Origin: Candidatus Thorarchaeota archaeon
GTDB lineage: Archaea > Asgardarchaeota > Thorarchaeia > Thorarchaeales > Thorarchaeaceae
Direction of reading: 5' to 3'
NCBI GenBank assembly: GCA_003345595.1
Contig: PRDI01000075.1
Coordinates: 11,276 to 75,275, forward strand
DNA: 64,000 nt
Every line of letters begins with the position of its first letter. Within the stretch, counting starts at the first letter, position 1. Below, one piece after another: positions 1,265 through 27,846 of this stretch. The notes under the pieces are model-generated. The model had not been told where the DNA came from. It saw only the letters and a program-made list of their open reading frames with translations, and made no database searches. The translations under genes and the position numbers were made by a program.

Positions 1265-1873
1265 TTACCAGGTGGGTATCTGCAGGCCCTCAGCCTGCAA
1301 GACTCTCTCTATCTCGTTCCTGAGCTCAACGATATTCGTCCCCTGCTTAGCCGAAAGTGGGACAATCACGGGAGCAAGTCCCTTCTGTGGAATCTTGTCA
1401 TGCAGATAGTCTATCTCTTCTGCTCTGTTACCACTTGGCAGCTTGTCAATCTTGTTAGCGACTACTATCACGTGTTGAGATATCTCAGAAAGGAAGGTAT
1501 AGAATTCCATATCGATTGGAATCTCTCCCTTGTTTTCCCATCTCTCGACGAGCTCTCGGAAGAGCGAGATGTCTATGACGAGGACCGCCAAGACTAGGCG
1601 ACCGCTCCAAGACTCAAGCTTTTGCACGAGTGCGGTCTTTGCCCGTTCAATGGCCTTCCTTCCCTGTCCAGCCATGTGGCCAAAGCCCGGTGTATCAACA
1701 AAGAGCACGGCTCCGAGATCAATACTCTTCTCCCATCGTGTGGTCCCTGGACGCTTGCCTACCTTGAGTCTTCGGCCTGTGAGTGCTCTCATCACGCTAC
1801 TCTTACCCACGTTGCTTCGTCCAGCGAAAACGACCATGGGTTTCTCATTCCCAGAATGGTCTTGTTCTGGCAT
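1265..1873 (-). CDS. engB: GTP-binding protein EngB/YihA
   Basis: GRSNVGKS, DTPGFG and NKID motifs; start uncertain (ATG at 1873 or 1837). Confidence 0.9.
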   Translation of the reverse strand: MPEQDHSGNEKPMVVFAGRSNVGKSSVMRALTGRRLKVGKRPGTTRWEKSIDLGAVLFVDTPGFGHMAGQGRKAIERAKTALVQKLESWSGRLVLAVLVIDISLFRELVERWENKGEIPIDMEFYTFLSEISQHVIVVANKIDKLPSGNRAEEIDYLHDKIPQKGLAPVIVPLSAKQGTNIVELRNEIERVLQAEGLQIPTW

Positions 1874-4685
1874 AGTTCCGCTCCGCCTCTGCAATCTGCC
1901 TGAGCAGACTGACTCTGTCTGTCATTCCCGGACGCAGTATACGAGATGCTGTCGTCGGTCCAATTCCACGTCCGGCCAGCGCTAGTAGGGCAATCCTGCC
2001 ATACGTTGCCACAAGTTCTGCTGTCAGGACGCCTGCAGCATAGAGCTTTCTCTTGTCCTTAGGTACCCTTCGGCCGGCTTTCACTGATTTCACTGTTCCT
2101 GAAAGCTCCGAGTCGTCCGGAGAAACTGCTGCAATCATTCTTGATCCACAGCTTGGACAGGACACTATCTCGTCCAAAGTGGATACTGTCCGAACCGAGT
2201 TCCAATCTCCATTGGCCATACACACGAGTCTGAACTGTTTTGCGAGAAGTCTGGCCTCCATAAGCCGAAGAATCTCGTTCTCATCAGTGATTTCACCTAG
2301 CACCTCGAAGCGGCTCTTTTCCTCAATTATCAGGCGTGCGAGTGGCGAGGGTTTGTCGGTTACTACAGTATAGACGTCCACAGTCCCAGATGAGATTCGG
2401 TCGAATAGGTCGACGACCATATTCTCGTCCAGTTTGTCGTGCAGCACCTCTCTCATCGCCTCTTCGTAGACAGGTCCGTCCTGAAAGACATCTATCAGGC
2501 GTCTGACCGGGATGTCCTTGACCCTTATGTCTCTTCTAATCACACCCATTCTACGGGCGACATGGATGAATCGGGACGCGAATGTCTGCGTGTGTTTCAC
2601 TGCTAGTCGAAGTATCGTCGAAACCTGATTGCCTGTATATCCCTTGAGCGTGTCAACAACACGATTCAAGTCAAGCCGTGCCGTCGAAGTCAGAAGAATT
2701 CGGTAGGGATCTCTCTCAACACCCACGTCTGCTCCGATGCTCGTTGTCAGTAGAGCTGCTACGACAATGCCGAGGGTTTCATTTGCCTTGGTGCCGAACG
2801 GGGTATGAATGACCAAACCCGATCCGAAGTCCTCAACCAAGACAGAGTCCGCAGACGGCAACCTGCCCAATGACTCATGGCTCTGCACCACGGTTCGAAT
2901 CATGTAGTCTTGTGTTGTTTCATCTATCCCGTAGTGAGTCTGTAGCCAATTCCGGGCTTCAGCATTCGGTTCTCTCAGTGTGGAGTTCCAGAGCTTGGCA
3001 ACCTCCGATGCAACCTCATATGGGACCGGGATCATCTCACCAATCCAATGTGGTGCCTCGGTGTCAACGCTGGTTGCTGGTGCACAGAGGACCTCTTCTT
3101 CATCCACACTTACAACAGTCCAAGACTTACCCCTTATGACAAGCAGCGAGCCGCCTTGCAGATTCTGTGTGACATAGTCTTCGTCCAATACACCTATGGA
3201 TGTCCTCGTAGTCATGTCTAGGGCGTTCAGTTGTCTAACATCTGGAATTGTGCTCAAGTGCTCGTAGTAGAAGACCCGTGTCTTCCTGCTAGCTGAGATT
3301 CTTGAGTTCTGTATGCGTACAATTCCTCTCTCGGCCATAAAGTCCAGCACTGAGCCGAGTTCCTCATCAGTCACCTCCACGAACGGGTATGCTCCGTGTA
3401 TCAATGCTGTGAGATCCTTGCGGTCTATCTGATGCGTGTCAATGACAACCCCAGCTATCTGATGACATAGAACGTCCCAAGCCTTCTTGTGTATGCTTGC
3501 GTCCTCGACCTTGTTCGACAGGGCACGTCTAAGTATCACCGCTGACTCAGTCACGTCGTCGAGATTAACGGTTGCCAGAAACACCCCCTCTGCGATCTTG
3601 TCGAGTCCATGGCCGGCGCGCCCAGTACGCTGCAAGGCGCGGGCCACTTCTCGAGGGGACGAATACTGGACGACTAGGTCTGCCTGTCCGATGTCTATGC
3701 CAAGTTCCAGACTTGACGTAGCGATGATTGCCCTTGAGAGTCCCTGTTTCAAACGAGTTTCAGCAGCCACTCGGGTGTCCTTTGAGAGTGACCCATGGTG
3801 GACATCAAACTCAAATGGAGGTTTGAGAGCGTGCATCTTGGCGCCAAGGACTTCCGCGAACGACCTAGTGTTAGTGAACACTATTGTCGAGGTATGTGAT
3901 TGCACTAGATCAACGATTCTTCGAAGCCTCGCTGTGGAGTTCACGGGATAGGAGATTCTCTTGGAAGTTTCAATATCCTCAGTAGTGGGTTGTGGCATTT
4001 CCACTCTCAAGTTCATCTTCCGTAGTCCATATCCCTCCCACAGGATTCTTGTTTCACCCTTCGGCCCGCTCAAAAGGGCCATAACAGCCCTAGGGTTCCC
4101 GACGGTTGCGGACAGCCCTATTCGTTGTACTCGCCCCCCTACGGCTTGGTCCAGCCGTTCAAGACCAAGACTGAGCTGTGTCCCTCTTTTGCTGTCGGCC
4201 AGTTCGTGTACCTCGTCGACAACCACGGCAAACACAGTCTTGAGATGGTATCTGAGCCTCGGCGCTGGCAGGATTGCCTGAAGCGACTCGGGCGTCGTTA
4301 TTAGCAGGTGAGGTGGTGTGATGGCCTGCTGTCTTCGCACATATTGTGTTGTATCACCGTGCCGGACAGCCACTGTGAAACCCAATTTGCCACAGAGGCC
4401 CTCCACTCTTCCAAACACGTCCCTGTTGAGTGCTCTTAGCGGCGTTATGTACAGGATGTAGACCCCAAACAGGTCTCGTTTCTGCTGTTTTTCTCCAAGG
4501 AGTTTCAGTAGTGGTAAGAGGGCCGCTTCAGTCTTGCCGCTGCCTGTGGGGGCGAGTAGAAGCATGTCGCTGCGTTCAGTCAGTATTGCTGGAATCGCCT
4601 TCTCTTGGATCGGTGTGGGCTTCTGGATACCACGAGCTGACAGGAATTCGGAAATCTCTGGACCTAGAGAATCAAAAGCACTCAT
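1845..4685 (-). CDS. lhr: Lhr-like SF2 DEAD/DEAH helicase
   Basis: APTGSGKT, PLRALNRD, TTPESL, DEVH, SAT, HHGSLS, LELGIDIG, QRTGRAGH; C-terminal Cys cluster. Confidence 0.93.
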   Translation of the reverse strand: MSAFDSLGPEISEFLSARGIQKPTPIQEKAIPAILTERSDMLLLAPTGSGKTEAALLPLLKLLGEKQQKRDLFGVYILYITPLRALNRDVFGRVEGLCGKLGFTVAVRHGDTTQYVRRQQAITPPHLLITTPESLQAILPAPRLRYHLKTVFAVVVDEVHELADSKRGTQLSLGLERLDQAVGGRVQRIGLSATVGNPRAVMALLSGPKGETRILWEGYGLRKMNLRVEMPQPTTEDIETSKRISYPVNSTARLRRIVDLVQSHTSTIVFTNTRSFAEVLGAKMHALKPPFEFDVHHGSLSKDTRVAAETRLKQGLSRAIIATSSLELGIDIGQADLVVQYSSPREVARALQRTGRAGHGLDKIAEGVFLATVNLDDVTESAVILRRALSNKVEDASIHKKAWDVLCHQIAGVVIDTHQIDRKDLTALIHGAYPFVEVTDEELGSVLDFMAERGIVRIQNSRISASRKTRVFYYEHLSTIPDVRQLNALDMTTRTSIGVLDEDYVTQNLQGGSLLVIRGKSWTVVSVDEEEVLCAPATSVDTEAPHWIGEMIPVPYEVASEVAKLWNSTLREPNAEARNWLQTHYGIDETTQDYMIRTVVQSHESLGRLPSADSVLVEDFGSGLVIHTPFGTKANETLGIVVAALLTTSIGADVGVERDPYRILLTSTARLDLNRVVDTLKGYTGNQVSTILRLAVKHTQTFASRFIHVARRMGVIRRDIRVKDIPVRRLIDVFQDGPVYEEAMREVLHDKLDENMVVDLFDRISSGTVDVYTVVTDKPSPLARLIIEEKSRFEVLGEITDENEILRLMEARLLAKQFRLVCMANGDWNSVRTVSTLDEIVSCPSCGSRMIAAVSPDDSELSGTVKSVKAGRRVPKDKRKLYAAGVLTAELVATYGRIALLALAGRGIGPTTASRILRPGMTDRVSLLRQIAEAERNYARTRPFWE

Positions 4686-4921
4686 CCAAACGACTTCCTT
4701 AGTCGGAGCGTGTGACGAATGGCACTCACTAGGATGCGGATGTCGGTTCTGAGTGTAGCATCAGCATCGCATGCCCTGTTCTCAAGCAGTTCTATGGCCT
4801 CGTTCGGAGAGGAGATCTGTTTCATTATCTCCTCGACCAGTGACTGCACTATGTCAAGATTGGACAGGTGCGGTGCAGATCTCTCGAATGCCTGTTGGAC
4901 TATTTCTTCAGTGTTCATCAT
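4682..4921 (-). CDS. Hypothetical small helical protein
   Basis: 79-aa ORF whose stop overlaps the lhr start (ATGA), suggesting translational coupling. Confidence 0.7.
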   Translation of the reverse strand: MMNTEEIVQQAFERSAPHLSNLDIVQSLVEEIMKQISSPNEAIELLENRACDADATLRTDIRILVSAIRHTLRLRKSFG

Positions 4922-4941
4922 GAGGTGGCTCTGGACGTGCC

Positions 4942-5046
4942 TTACTCTTCCTCTTCCTCACCGTATGCGACGTAGCCCAAGACAAGGAGAAGGGCCACGA
5001 TTCCCAAGACGTACAAGACAATATCGATGACTGGGATTATCTGCAT
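4942..5046 (-). CDS. 34-aa single-pass membrane micro-protein, candidate Ost4-like
   Basis: Hand-translated MQIIPVIDIVLYVLGIVALLLVLGYVAYGEEEEE*; ATG start; TTATAA box about 30 nt upstream; fills the gap between elf1 and the 79-aa ORF; below the ORF-track length cutoff. Confidence 0.7.
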   Translation of the reverse strand: MQIIPVIDIVLYVLGIVALLLVLGYVAYGEEEEE

Positions 5047-5113
5047 AGGTATCAGATGGCTCCGTCTGAGTGTCACTTATAATCATTGCTGACTGAAAAG
5101 ATTGATGCAGTGG

Positions 5114-5365
5114 CTATTCCTCTGTCTTTGCGCTCTCGTAGAATCGGTCAATGAAGCTGCCGTAGACATCTACAGGCTCGGTGAGCGAAGTGACATCGTC
5201 AATAGTCATCTCAAGTCCACAGGAGCCGCACTTAACAGTGGCGACTTTCTTTTCTCTAAGCAGTTCTATCTTGATTGCCGCATTACCACAGCTTGGGCAT
5301 TGATAAACGTCAGGAATCCGCTTTTGTGGTCGTCGTCGGATTTTCTGCCTTCTTCTTCTTCCCAT
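5114..5365 (-). CDS. elf1: Transcription elongation factor Elf1
   Basis: MGRRRR N-terminus, CPSC...CGSC zinc ribbon, EPVDVYGSFID; SD-like AGGTGAGG upstream. Confidence 0.93.
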   Translation of the reverse strand: MGRRRRQKIRRRPQKRIPDVYQCPSCGNAAIKIELLREKKVATVKCGSCGLEMTIDDVTSLTEPVDVYGSFIDRFYESAKTEE

Positions 5366-20539: not shown

Positions 20540-20687
20540 TTCTATTCGCCTCTGGTTCTCTTGCTGTCGTCGATACTCGCGTGTTTTTAACAATGACTCT
20601 GTGCCACGCTTATGTCATGGTACAGGCCTACATCTCACGATATTTTTAAAAGCAGACCTACCGACCTCGCTCGCTGAGGTTTGCCAG

Positions 20688-21101
20688 TTGCCTGTATGGT
20701 GGCCGCGATTCATAATTAAGCCGCAAGTACGACTCACGAGGCCCCGTTTTGGAATGCCTGCACGTCCTCCCGACATAGTCCTCTTTGGAGGCCTGTTGCT
20801 GGTGGTCCTGTTTATTATGGGTGGCAACATTTACACGCTAGTCAAGACCCCACCCGCGATTGCTGCTGACTCATCAGGAAATCCAATCCTTATTGCGCCA
20901 GGTATTGATGTCCAGCTTGGACTGGAGGGGATTGTGGCCTCGGTCGTCATTTTCATAGGAACTGTTGGTGTTGGTCTCGTCTATCTGTCCTCAAAGTATG
21001 TTTTCCAGCCCGGCTACGCAACACGTCTGATGGTTCTTGGTGCAATACTTGCAGGGGGCGCATTCTTAGTCATAAGCTACCTCTATGGTCTTAAGACGTA
21101 G
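20688..21101 (+). CDS. DC2/OSTC-like (OST3/OST6 family) oligosaccharyltransferase subunit
   Basis: Three TM helices; FIMGGNIY..V..PP...QLGLEGIVAS motif; TTG start with GAGGT SD and TTTTTAAA box. Confidence 0.8.
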   Translation: MPVWWPRFIIKPQVRLTRPRFGMPARPPDIVLFGGLLLVVLFIMGGNIYTLVKTPPAIAADSSGNPILIAPGIDVQLGLEGIVASVVIFIGTVGVGLVYLSSKYVFQPGYATRLMVLGAILAGGAFLVISYLYGLKT

Positions 21102-25053: not shown

Positions 25054-27846
25054 ATGCCGAGCCTGAGTCACTTCAAAAGATCCGCTAGCAGGTTCCTTCA
25101 TCAAGTCTTTCACAAACCAAAAGCAAAGATATCTCGAGGATCGGTCCTTCTCATCGTTGCTCTTTGTATCATAGTCGTTTCTGCTATAGCGGTTCGTCTA
25201 GAGCCACTGCTCGACTCACAACCGATTGTCCATGAGTTTGACTCGTGGTATCAGCTTAGAGTGACTCAGTATATTGCTGCAAATGGATATGCATCATTCT
25301 TCAGCTGGTACGACCACATGAGTTGGGTGCCCTTCGGTCGCGACATAGCGGTCTCAACCTACATTGGTGTGCCGTTCACAGCCGCCACATTCTACTTTCT
25401 TCTTAATGGAATAGGTATCAGCGTGGATTTGGTGGTTGTCTGCATCATGATGGCTGGGTTCATGGGCGGCTTCGCGACACTGGCCACATTCTTTCTGGGG
25501 AAGGAGTTGTCGAACAAGTCAGTCGGACTCCTGAGCGCTCTCTTCGTGGCACTCATGCCTGCGTATATTCAGAGGACAACAGCCGGCTTTTTTGACAACG
25601 AGTCTATAGGCGTCTTTGCCATTGTGATTACCCTCCTCTTCTTCATGCGCTCTCTGAAGAGGGGTTCTCTGCCCTCTGCAGTGGCCGCAGGCCTATCTCT
25701 AGGCTATCTACAACTGTCTTGGGGAGCAGCAGACTTTCTTACGGACCTGTTTGCTCTCTATGCGTTCTTCATGTTAGTCACAGGTCGATACAGTAGTCGT
25801 CTTCTCTCAAGCTACTTGATCACGTTGAGCTTGGGTCTCTTCATTGCAAATCTGCTGCCTCGTAACAGTTTCCTGAACTCGGGGGCACTCACTTCTCTCA
25901 CATTCCTTGCTCCGGTAGGGGTGGGTGTCTTGCTTGCAGGCTATGAGGTCTGGTTGCGGGTTTCAAAGTACCGTGAGGCCACAGCAGGTGCACTGGCTCC
26001 TCATATGAAGCCAATCTTGCTAGGGATAATCGCTCCAGTCCTTGGTGTGACGGCCTATTCCGTATTTGCAGCTGGTCAAAACCTGCAGATTTCAACACTC
26101 ACTTCTAACCCCATAACTTTCGTCGGTGGTAAGTTTCTCGCTGTCATTAACCCCTTCTATCGACTTGACCAGCGTATCTTCGCATCGGTAGCCGAGCATC
26201 TCCCTGCTCCCTGGGCGAGTTTCTATCAGACGCTGATTGTGCTGATATTCTTCTTCCCGGTTGGAATGTACTTCCTGTTCAAGAGGGGCCGCGATGAAGA
26301 CTGGTTGGTAGTCCTCTTTGGAGTCACTGCAGTGTACTTCACGGGTAGTATGATCCGTCTTGGCCTGATCCTAGCACCCGCAGTTGCACTACTTGCTGCT
26401 GTCGCCGTGAACGGTGTCTTGACGCCATTCGCAAGGGTTGTTTCTCAGAAGTCCGTTTTCGAACGTCGCAGGTTTCGAATCAGCTCGTCCCTTACTTCAG
26501 AACACACGATTGCTGTCTTTACGCTCATAGGACTGCTGCTTTCGGTCAATGTCTATCTTGGAGTTCAGTACGCTGTCCAAGTAGGTGCTCCTGAGTTCGC
26601 GCCCTCAAAGCTCAGTGACACGAGCCAGTTTCTCGACTGGCAGACTGCAATGACATACGTCCGTAATGTCGTTCCCAAATCGGCAACAATAGCCAGCTGG
26701 TGGGACTATGGATACTGGATAACGTGTGCTGGCGCGGGACGGTCGATTGTAGACAATGCCACCTTCAATGCCACCCAGATAGCTCTTATGGGCTATGCCC
26801 TGATGGCTCTCAATCTCACTGAGTCACTGAAGACCTTCAAGCTGTGGAATGCATCACATGTACTGGTATACTGGGGACACGAGCTCTCGTTCTTTGGTGG
26901 GGACGAAGGAAAGTGGCCCTGGATGGTCCGCATAGCTGAAGACTATCTCGGGTCGTCAGTCATAGATGACCGTACGTACCTCGGGGACAATCTTGCGACC
27001 ACGAATACAATCGAGACTGACTACACCCTCGATCCTTTCTACTCCTCGACCCTGTATAGACTGATGTCATACGGTGAACCACTCACCTCAACCGAAGCCG
27101 ATGAGTGGGGTCTGCCGAGTGGAAGGAAATCGGTTGACTTCTATCAACCTCAAGGATACAGTTCTCCAATCAGTTATACGGGCGACACGAGATGGACCTC
27201 TCATATGCCTATCGACCTACACGGGGCGTTCAAGGGCCCCTACTATAGCTCAGACTATGGCACAGTCAAAATCTACGAGATCGACTACACCATGTATGAG
27301 CAGTATCTCAATAGGACTGCCGCTCAGTGGGCCCCCAAGGAGGGCACATTGACTGGTGTCAAAGCCGACGGCGTTCTCTCTGCCAGTGAGAAGGCCTTCC
27401 AGAGCTTCGATGGAGTTCTTGGAGGCGGCTTTGATGCCAAAGTCTACGTACAGGCCAACTCCACACAACTGTACTTTGGTCTTGAGATGGATGATTACCA
27501 AGTCGGCAATGACGCCTTCGGCATACAGATTGCGCCGCTGGGCCCGGTCACGGCATCAGACATCCGCATAGTGAACTATGCAGGCCATCAGTTCTATGAC
27601 GGTCATATTGACTACAACGGTGATTGGGCCTTCGACTCAAGTGGGGCCAATGCAACGTTGTTTGGAACAGGAGAGAACGTCACCGAGCTGATATTTCCGC
27701 TCAACTCTCTCGATCCTCAGGACCTGAACCTGAAACCGGGAATGAACTATCAGATACGGCTGCTGTTCTGGGACAATGTTGACTCAGGAGAACCGACACT
27801 CGCGACCGATTGGCGAACCATCTGGGTGCCTGTGAGCTTGTACTGA
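25054..27846 (+). CDS. aglB: Oligosaccharyltransferase catalytic subunit STT3/AglB with C-terminal DOMON/CBM9-like extension
   Basis: IVHEFDSW, DNE, SVAEH, WWDYG, DNATFN, GDEGKWPWMVRI; many TM helices. Confidence 0.95.
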   Translation: MPSLSHFKRSASRFLHQVFHKPKAKISRGSVLLIVALCIIVVSAIAVRLEPLLDSQPIVHEFDSWYQLRVTQYIAANGYASFFSWYDHMSWVPFGRDIAVSTYIGVPFTAATFYFLLNGIGISVDLVVVCIMMAGFMGGFATLATFFLGKELSNKSVGLLSALFVALMPAYIQRTTAGFFDNESIGVFAIVITLLFFMRSLKRGSLPSAVAAGLSLGYLQLSWGAADFLTDLFALYAFFMLVTGRYSSRLLSSYLITLSLGLFIANLLPRNSFLNSGALTSLTFLAPVGVGVLLAGYEVWLRVSKYREATAGALAPHMKPILLGIIAPVLGVTAYSVFAAGQNLQISTLTSNPITFVGGKFLAVINPFYRLDQRIFASVAEHLPAPWASFYQTLIVLIFFFPVGMYFLFKRGRDEDWLVVLFGVTAVYFTGSMIRLGLILAPAVALLAAVAVNGVLTPFARVVSQKSVFERRRFRISSSLTSEHTIAVFTLIGLLLSVNVYLGVQYAVQVGAPEFAPSKLSDTSQFLDWQTAMTYVRNVVPKSATIASWWDYGYWITCAGAGRSIVDNATFNATQIALMGYALMALNLTESLKTFKLWNASHVLVYWGHELSFFGGDEGKWPWMVRIAEDYLGSSVIDDRTYLGDNLATTNTIETDYTLDPFYSSTLYRLMSYGEPLTSTEADEWGLPSGRKSVDFYQPQGYSSPISYTGDTRWTSHMPIDLHGAFKGPYYSSDYGTVKIYEIDYTMYEQYLNRTAAQWAPKEGTLTGVKADGVLSASEKAFQSFDGVLGGGFDAKVYVQANSTQLYFGLEMDDYQVGNDAFGIQIAPLGPVTASDIRIVNYAGHQFYDGHIDYNGDWAFDSSGANATLFGTGENVTELIFPLNSLDPQDLNLKPGMNYQIRLLFWDNVDSGEPTLATDWRTIWVPVSLY

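Follow-up and report, generated by a model that had tools for sequence, protein, structure and literature searches.

The window analysed here, a stretch of 64,000 nucleotides from a Candidatus Thorarchaeota archaeon (contig PRDI01000075.1, positions 11,276 to 75,275), carries on its minus strand a small open reading frame (smORF) at 4945-5046, with the stop codon at 4942-4944, whose translation is a single-pass membrane micro-protein of 34 amino acids. A first-pass annotation had likened this peptide to Ost4, a subunit of the eukaryotic oligosaccharyltransferase (OST). Two questions are raised by the locus: whether so short a frame is a gene at all, and whether its product may act as an Ost4-like subunit of AglB, the archaeal homologue of STT3. 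Oligosaccharyltransferases of archaea are regarded as consisting of one subunit, and the OST with its eight subunits as an invention of eukaryotes. If the micro-protein does sit in the Ost4 groove of AglB, it would be a concrete and clonable candidate with which it can be tested whether the Stt3-Ost4-Ost3 arrangement predates eukaryotes.

Read on the minus strand, 4942-5076 translates as VTLRRSHLIP and then, beginning with the ATG at 5046, as the 34 smORF residues up to the stop, in agreement with the translation quoted in the first-pass annotation. The peptide is comprised of one hydrophobic helix with G15 and Y25, and of an acidic tail, YGEEEEE. Conservation of the frame, on which the Ost4-like reading had been made to depend, is nearly complete: a profile search found the smORF as a single copy in 84 of the 85 Thorarchaeaceae genomes (E 1e-13 to 1e-19), and a weaker copy in the sole genome of the sister family (f2). 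A tblastn search around the elf1 gene in 24 other Thorarchaeaceae genomes (16 genera) placed the peptide at the same position. In the resulting alignment of 25 sequences, every Thorarchaeaceae copy starts with MQ and ends with an acidic run; M1, Q2, L19, Y25 and G29 are invariant, while L11, G15 and E34 are nearly so.

The pattern of nucleotide changes in the 25 orthologues is that of a coding sequence. Differences are distributed over codon positions 1, 2 and 3 as 31, 18 and 51%, and the synonymous share of single-base codon differences is 70%, compared with 24% expected. The smORF frame is the sole frame open in all 25 orthologues, indels occur in multiples of three, and the start and stop codons are kept. 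A search of the locus against Rfam gave no family match. An ORF of 103 aa on the plus strand (4719-5030), opposite the smORF and the 79-aa gene that follows it, was rejected as an antisense artefact.

The coding sequence is preceded by a conserved block on the minus strand (5078..5091) which has the form of an archaeal promoter, with a BRE-like element, cagcaaNga, followed by a TATA box, TTATAA. This box (5078-5083), already pointed out in the first-pass annotation as belonging to the smORF, ends 31 nt before the ATG. In 25 of 25 orthologous loci the block, cagcaaNgaTTATAAg, keeps a constant spacing of about 29-31 nt to the ATG, which indicates that the smORF has an archaeal promoter of its own. 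The transcript is predicted to start a few nucleotides before the ATG and would have a very short leader.

The amino acid sequence of the smORF is thus under purifying selection and the gene is separately promoted. It has to be considered that the frame is very short and hydrophobic, that it stands at the head of an operon, and that its “recognition” value in a protein language model falls under the usual mark, as might be the case for a chance ORF or for a non-coding element, for instance an upstream leader of the downstream genes. Such an explanation is nevertheless highly improbable in view of the strong purifying selection, the frame open in every orthologue with its conserved ends and three-multiple indels, the lack of an Rfam match, and the existence of relatives at 25-35% identity which share the architecture and have ribosome-binding sites. 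We consider it practically certain that the smORF is a genuine gene.

Relatives of the peptide extend beyond its own family. Of 30 Asgard families sampled with a profile of a 37-sequence alignment, at least 15 were found to contain the smORF family, at least 14 of them being families other than Thorarchaeaceae; with the same profile and sample, several large Asgard families gave no detection. Members are 31-41 aa long and have one hydrophobic stretch and an acidic tail, either (K)EE or EEEEE. Retention of G15 and Y25 among homologues was another point on which the first-pass annotation had staked its reading, and both are retained: M1 and the Tyr are invariant in the 37 sequences, and the Gly ten residues before the Tyr is present in 31 of them, being replaced by A, S or I in the rest. 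Outside the thorarchaeal group, the smORFs are mostly located behind GGAGG-type ribosome-binding sites.

The description of the gene as unannotated holds in part. Members have neither a name nor a Pfam domain, but several databases do call them, as “hypothetical protein”; all 68 such small proteins found in databases, among them a named example from Baldrarchaeia, bear the label “hypothetical” and are without a Pfam domain. A gene whose product is named only “hypothetical”, where it is called at all, turns out to belong to the core genes of an entire archaeal class.

The genomic surroundings of the smORF were examined for partners. Upstream, on the same strand, lies elf1 (5114..5365), a gene for a transcription elongation factor Elf1-like zinc ribbon (Pfam PF05129, Zn_ribbon_Elf1, E 5e-19). 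The proposed position of the smORF downstream of elf1 in Asgard genomes is confirmed within Thorarchaeaceae, in 25 loci, but the arrangement is lost in f2 and in other families, where the conserved partner is the gene on the other side. In the f2 locus (L062) the smORF is 2 kb from elf1 and on the opposite strand, and a homologue of the 79-aa gene still follows 20 nt after it. Because the link is lost outside Thorarchaeaceae, elf1 was rejected as a functional neighbour.

Two further proteins were noticed in the course of this comparison. A protein of about 124 aa with a SWIM-like CxC…CxH pattern and without a Pfam match is encoded directly upstream of the smORF in two Asgard families, f2 (L062, 5002-5376, minus strand) and f13 (L124, ~ 2390-2782, plus strand). 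At 156-1250 on the plus strand, the window also contains a gene for a secreted GIFT/ABC_transp_aux surface protein of 364 aa (ABC_transp_aux, E 9e-11), in which a TM helix is located near the C-terminus. The homologue in L062 (2850-3935, plus strand) comes directly after elf1 and also matches the IFT52 GIFT domain. The C-terminal TM segment and tail of the 364-aa protein (…LLVYLRGKKEE) are loosely similar to the smORF peptide.

Downstream, 20 nt past the smORF stop, begins the gene for a soluble four-helix-bundle protein of 79 aa (4682..4921, minus strand). Compared with the NMR structure of PF2048.1 from Pyrococcus furiosus (PDB 6e4j), its AF2 model (pLDDT 92) gives a Foldseek probability of 1.00, TM scores of 0.79/0.86 and an rmsd of 1.1 Å. 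The family profile matches 6e4j_A at E 2.2e-9, and the atlas cluster of the protein carries PF27357, “MJ1579”, a model absent from the Pfam set in which the protein found no match. With MJ1579/PF2048.1 (PDB 6e4j, 6ns8) the 79-aa protein shares the four-helix fold and a TDIRIL motif, at 25% identity. This family, in which 134 representative clusters were counted, has no known function (PMC7877757).

The spacing between the smORF and the 79-aa gene is 3-26 nt in thorarchaeal genomes and in other Asgard families. Among loci of 79-aa-protein relatives from other Asgard families, 8 of 11 have a TM smORF of 31-38 aa and the same architecture directly upstream, and one further pair was found in an unplaced MAG (L193). 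A scan of genome contigs with the MJ1579-like alignment and a narrow peptide pattern gave matches from Thorarchaeota only. The pairing is seen in Asgard archaea and in the one unplaced MAG, but not in Pyrococcus and Methanomicrobia: no smORF was found at the P. furiosus locus or at that of a Methanomicrobia MAG, in which the gene is located after an aminotransferase gene. In this manner PF2048.1, an orphan protein of structural genomics, becomes tied to a conserved gene pair.

In P. furiosus, PF2048.1 overlaps the end of a gene for a PrsW-family membrane protease by 10 nt (L187, 2303-3216, plus strand), a hint that in Thermococcales translation of the MJ1579 family is coupled to that of a membrane protein. 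The C-terminus of this protease was considered as a counterpart of the smORF peptide and rejected, as no resemblance was seen.

The 79-aa gene is followed by a gene for an Lhr-type helicase (1845..4685, minus strand; Pfam DEAD, Helicase_C, WH_Lhr and DEAD_assoc), with an overlap of 4 nt at the 79-aa gene's stop. Lhr is probably included in the transcription unit of the smORF, in Thorarchaeaceae only. In f2 its place directly after the MJ1579-family gene is occupied by an EngB-like GTPase, so Lhr looks inserted into an older smORF/MJ1579/GTPase cluster. In the window, an EngB-like GTPase gene (MMR_HSR1) is located after Lhr, at 1265-1894 on the minus strand.

In a few genomes the pair has been broken by decay of the downstream member. 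In one thorarchaeal genus (g2) both genomes have the 79-aa gene broken by frameshifts and stop codons, and in another (g7) two genomes out of three carry a degenerate copy. In the decayed loci (L008, L009, L016 and L050) the smORF and the downstream Lhr gene are intact. This natural experiment, in which the operon partner is lost and the peptide retained, indicates that the smORF has a function of its own, independent of the 79-aa protein.

These observations bear on the explanation that the smORF encodes a membrane partner or anchor of the co-operonic MJ1579-family protein and is unrelated to AglB, its cytoplasmic acidic tail recruiting the 79-aa protein by way of a conserved basic segment, TL(R/K)TDI(R/K)IL, and a basic C-terminus. 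The closely spaced pair is indeed the unit that is conserved, in the thorarchaeal genomes and in at least seven other Asgard families, while other neighbours change, and the overlap with the PrsW-family gene in P. furiosus hints at partnership with a membrane protein. An anchor is difficult to reconcile with an intact smORF beside a decayed MJ1579-family gene in g2 and in most of g7, and with the occurrence of the MJ1579 family without such a smORF in Thermococci and Methanomicrobia. The predicted docking to AglB, described below, passed and also speaks against an anchor, and we regard this explanation as unlikely. The same genomic evidence weighs against the Ost4-like reading in one respect, as the conserved genomic partner of the smORF is a cytosolic MJ1579-family protein and not a glycosylation gene.

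Similarity to Ost4 was assessed at the sequence level with the Pfam model PF10215, whose gathering cut-off is 25 bits. No match at E ≤ 10 was obtained for the 25 thorarchaeal smORF members, none in the window's own genome, and none over the cut-off in any of 151 Asgard genomes. The best score, 16.2 bits (E 0.0098), belongs to a relative from locus L123, residues 10-33 of which align with positions 9-32 of the profile, and the second, 12.2 bits, to one from L113, with residues 1-28 on positions 1-28. For these two distant members PF10215 is the sole Pfam match, in both cases in register. In 28 database relatives PF10215 matches one (E 0.17), compared with 6-9 each for DUF6366, the Lamp2 TM segment, Orf78 and MLANA. 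A score of 16 bits is at noise level among single-TM families. Weak matches of five members to DUF4500/SMIM19, the best at E 0.0017, were attributed to a generic TM segment and set aside.

Searches of the PDB with the thorarchaeal and the 37-sequence family profiles returned no Ost4 chain at E ≤ 10. The power of such comparisons is low, as verified yeast Ost4 and human OST4 align with each other at only 16 bits (E 0.08). Sequence statistics alone do not establish the smORF product as Ost4. The proposed comparison with the Pfam model does not show homology: no thorarchaeal member matches, and the two relatives score below the threshold. Taken as a whole, the Ost4-like reading came through on frame conservation, on G15 and Y25, and on docking, the three points at which it had been exposed to refutation, and failed to gain sequence homology to Ost4.

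The details of the original alignment are accurate. The yeast Ost4 sequence used in the first-pass annotation is identical to that in PDB 1rkl/6c26/6ezn, and the identities at G15, I16, V17, L21, Y25 and A27 hold when checked against it. The differences that had been listed are equally real: thorarchaeal members start with MQ and not with the N-terminal I(S/T)D, have Y-(V/T/S/M) in place of a His after the Tyr, and carry an acidic tail. The YH dipeptide occurs in no member of the family.

Compared at the level of architecture, the family and eukaryotic Ost4 (36-37 aa, a component of subcomplex II, Stt3-Ost4-Ost3/6) are both small proteins with one TM helix. Both have a Gly in the middle of the helix and, ten residues further on at the cytoplasmic interface, a Tyr; this G-x9-Y spacing is as in yeast Ost4, and the pattern is short enough to arise by chance in TM helices. 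Many relatives outside the thorarchaeal group start with M-I-x-E/D and thus have an acidic residue near the N-terminus, as Ost4 does. The smORF tail (EEEEE) differs from that of Ost4, which is polar or basic. The smORF gene also differs in sharing an operon with the gene for a cytosolic MJ1579-family protein, and the binding of its product to AglB is a prediction.

The predicted partner, an AglB/STT3 oligosaccharyltransferase of 930 aa (Pfam STT3, E 6e-54), is encoded in the window at 25054-27846 on the plus strand. For complex prediction, AglB residues 1-640 were combined with the 37-sequence alignment of the smORF family, and the AglB alignment was comprised of the window's protein and 36 thorarchaeal homologues. 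The smORF-AglB complex reached an ipSAE of 0.69, while the best of three controls had 0.00. Of 80 solved complexes 58 attain the mark used for this score, as do 2 of 110 mismatched pairs, counts that hold only roughly here because our own alignments were used in the prediction. Three runs shared at least 88% of contacts, with a partner pLDDT of at least 75. Two replacement control peptides were poorly folded (pLDDT 35-44) and are probably not TM helices, so that the control score of 0.00 is no measure against any hydrophobic helix. In addition, STT3-OST4 complexes have already been solved, and the pass may come from the memory of the model. What the docking shows is a likeness to STT3-OST4; it supports binding of this copy but does not show it.

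The predicted interface on AglB consists of residues 28-54 (TM1), 155-167 (TM4), 452-463 (the cytoplasmic end of TM12) and 485-508 (TM13), with TM helices numbered by hydropathy. On the side of the peptide, residues 4-30 are predicted to be in contact, those with the lowest error being 15-26. In a review of cryo-EM structures, yeast Ost4 is described as sitting between TMH1 and TMH13 of Stt3, and charged substitutions at its residues 18-24 destabilise the Stt3-Ost4-Ost3 subcomplex (PMC7226087). The predicted smORF interface at TM1 and TM13 is the published Ost4 site, and the lowest-error region overlaps the region of the yeast mutations. The first-pass annotation had also allowed that a lack of docking in the Ost4 groove of STT3 would speak against it; the pose predicted with the window's AglB, at high model confidence, lies between TM1 and TM13.

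In the model, residue 25 of the peptide is in contact with AglB residue 36, and residue 15 with AglB residue 43. This order predicts that the peptide is antiparallel to TM1 and oriented N-out/C-in, which is the topology of Ost4. As the smORF peptide has no basic residues, the positive-inside rule gives no independent support for the orientation.

Covariation between the smORF and the AglB TM domain was measured as corrected mutual information in 67 paired thorarchaeal genomes (Neff 46). Interface columns score slightly above the other TM columns (p 0.10) and slightly above the full set of variable columns (p 0.06), a weak trend which has the predicted direction but is no evidence by itself; they hold 7 of the 25 best covarying pairs and account for 11% of variable columns. 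In most genomes of Thorarchaeia, that of the sister family included, the smORF and AglB genes share a contig and are about 20 kb apart (~ 20 thorarchaeal genomes). This linkage is block synteny and not an operon, the gene order being unusually stable over the block.

The block also includes, at 20601..21101 on the plus strand, a gene for a short OST3/OST6-family membrane protein of 166 aa (Pfam PF04756, E 1.4e-8). The match is limited to the C-terminal TM part of the profile. The protein, which lacks a thioredoxin domain, may be a candidate for the third member of an Stt3-Ost4-Ost3-like subcomplex. AglB follows 4 kb downstream of this gene, and glycine-cleavage and pterin genes lie between the two.

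The best-supported interpretation, to which we give about even credence, is that the smORF peptide is an Ost4-like accessory subunit of AglB, packed between TM1 and TM13. According to the model, the helix would be inserted with its N-terminus outside and its C-terminus inside, and would pack in the TM1/TM13 groove, with further contacts to TM4 and to TM12 at its cytoplasmic end. The contacts of the peptide would follow a conserved stripe of G15, A18/L19, L22 and Y25. The acidic EEEEE tail would then be cytoplasmic, beside conserved basic segments of AglB, namely K23, K25, R28 and the FERRRFR loop at 469-475. By analogy with yeast Ost4, the peptide could stabilise the catalytic subunit, and it might perhaps help to recruit the Ost3/6-like protein.

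The docking could alternatively be a false positive of a generic helix, and the peptide could serve some other membrane machine as a small subunit or regulator, for instance a transporter, a P-type ATPase, the translocon or a respiratory complex. It would then resemble KdpF, MgtS, sarcolipin/DWORF or the small oxidase subunits; KdpF, MgtS and sarcolipin/DWORF are, like the smORF peptide, single helices of 30-40 aa, and they pack in the groove of a large multi-pass enzyme, as is predicted for the peptide. Some results fit such a role: the nearest language-model neighbours of the peptide are unnamed proteins of 31-41 aa together with MgtS-like and YldA-like ones, at low scores (0.80-0.83), weak Pfam matches are spread over many single-TM families including DWORF and Sarcolamban, and the AglB docking controls lacked TM helices. 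However, no such match is significant or consistent across smORF members, and the scores are at noise level. In contrast to KdpF, MgtS and sarcolipin/DWORF, the smORF has no link to ATPases or transporters in sequence or neighbourhood, no transporter or ATPase gene being found among its conserved neighbours. The predicted pose on AglB, for its part, is specific, reproducible and coincident with a known subunit site. A place in another machine thus appears rather unlikely.

The Ost4-like interpretation has to be distinguished from statements on ancestry. Common descent of the smORF and eukaryotic Ost4 is a tentative proposal, conceivable but on balance doubtful. We hold with similar reserve the extended version, in which the peptide would be a true Ost4 homologue, an Stt3-Ost4(-Ost3/6) subcomplex II would already be present in Asgard archaea, and MJ1579/PF2048.1 would be a coupled cytosolic glycosylation factor.

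Homologues of Ost4 and Ost5 have been reported in most Asgard classes by distant-homology methods (Eme et al. 2023, Nature 618:992, PMC10307638), which renders outdated the earlier remark that no prokaryotic Ost4 had been described. In the portion of the text and supplements of that paper covered here, no Ost4 accession, sequence or cluster id is given, and the sole supplement match is to “Ost48”. The two sets come from the same phylum, “most classes” there being set against at least 15 of 30 sampled families here. The Asgard Ost4 of Eme et al. may be the smORF family or may be another one, for example an ORF of 43 aa in locus L072. An Asgard Ost4 has already been claimed, and the new details are the operon with the MJ1579-family gene, the acidic tail and the predicted AglB interface. 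In the covered portion the published claim takes up one sentence, to which coordinates, a 37-sequence alignment and a predicted interface and orientation are added here.

The 43-aa ORF mentioned above was found at a contig end, with its downstream context missing, in genome G160 of family f23 (L072, 1459-1590, plus strand). It contains …TLGIIVVILVLIYH…, has a basic tail, KRIRERRKST, and scores 15 bits with PF10215 at a per-genome E of 0.045. It has a YH dipeptide and, by eye, looks closer to eukaryotic Ost4 than the thorarchaeal peptide does.
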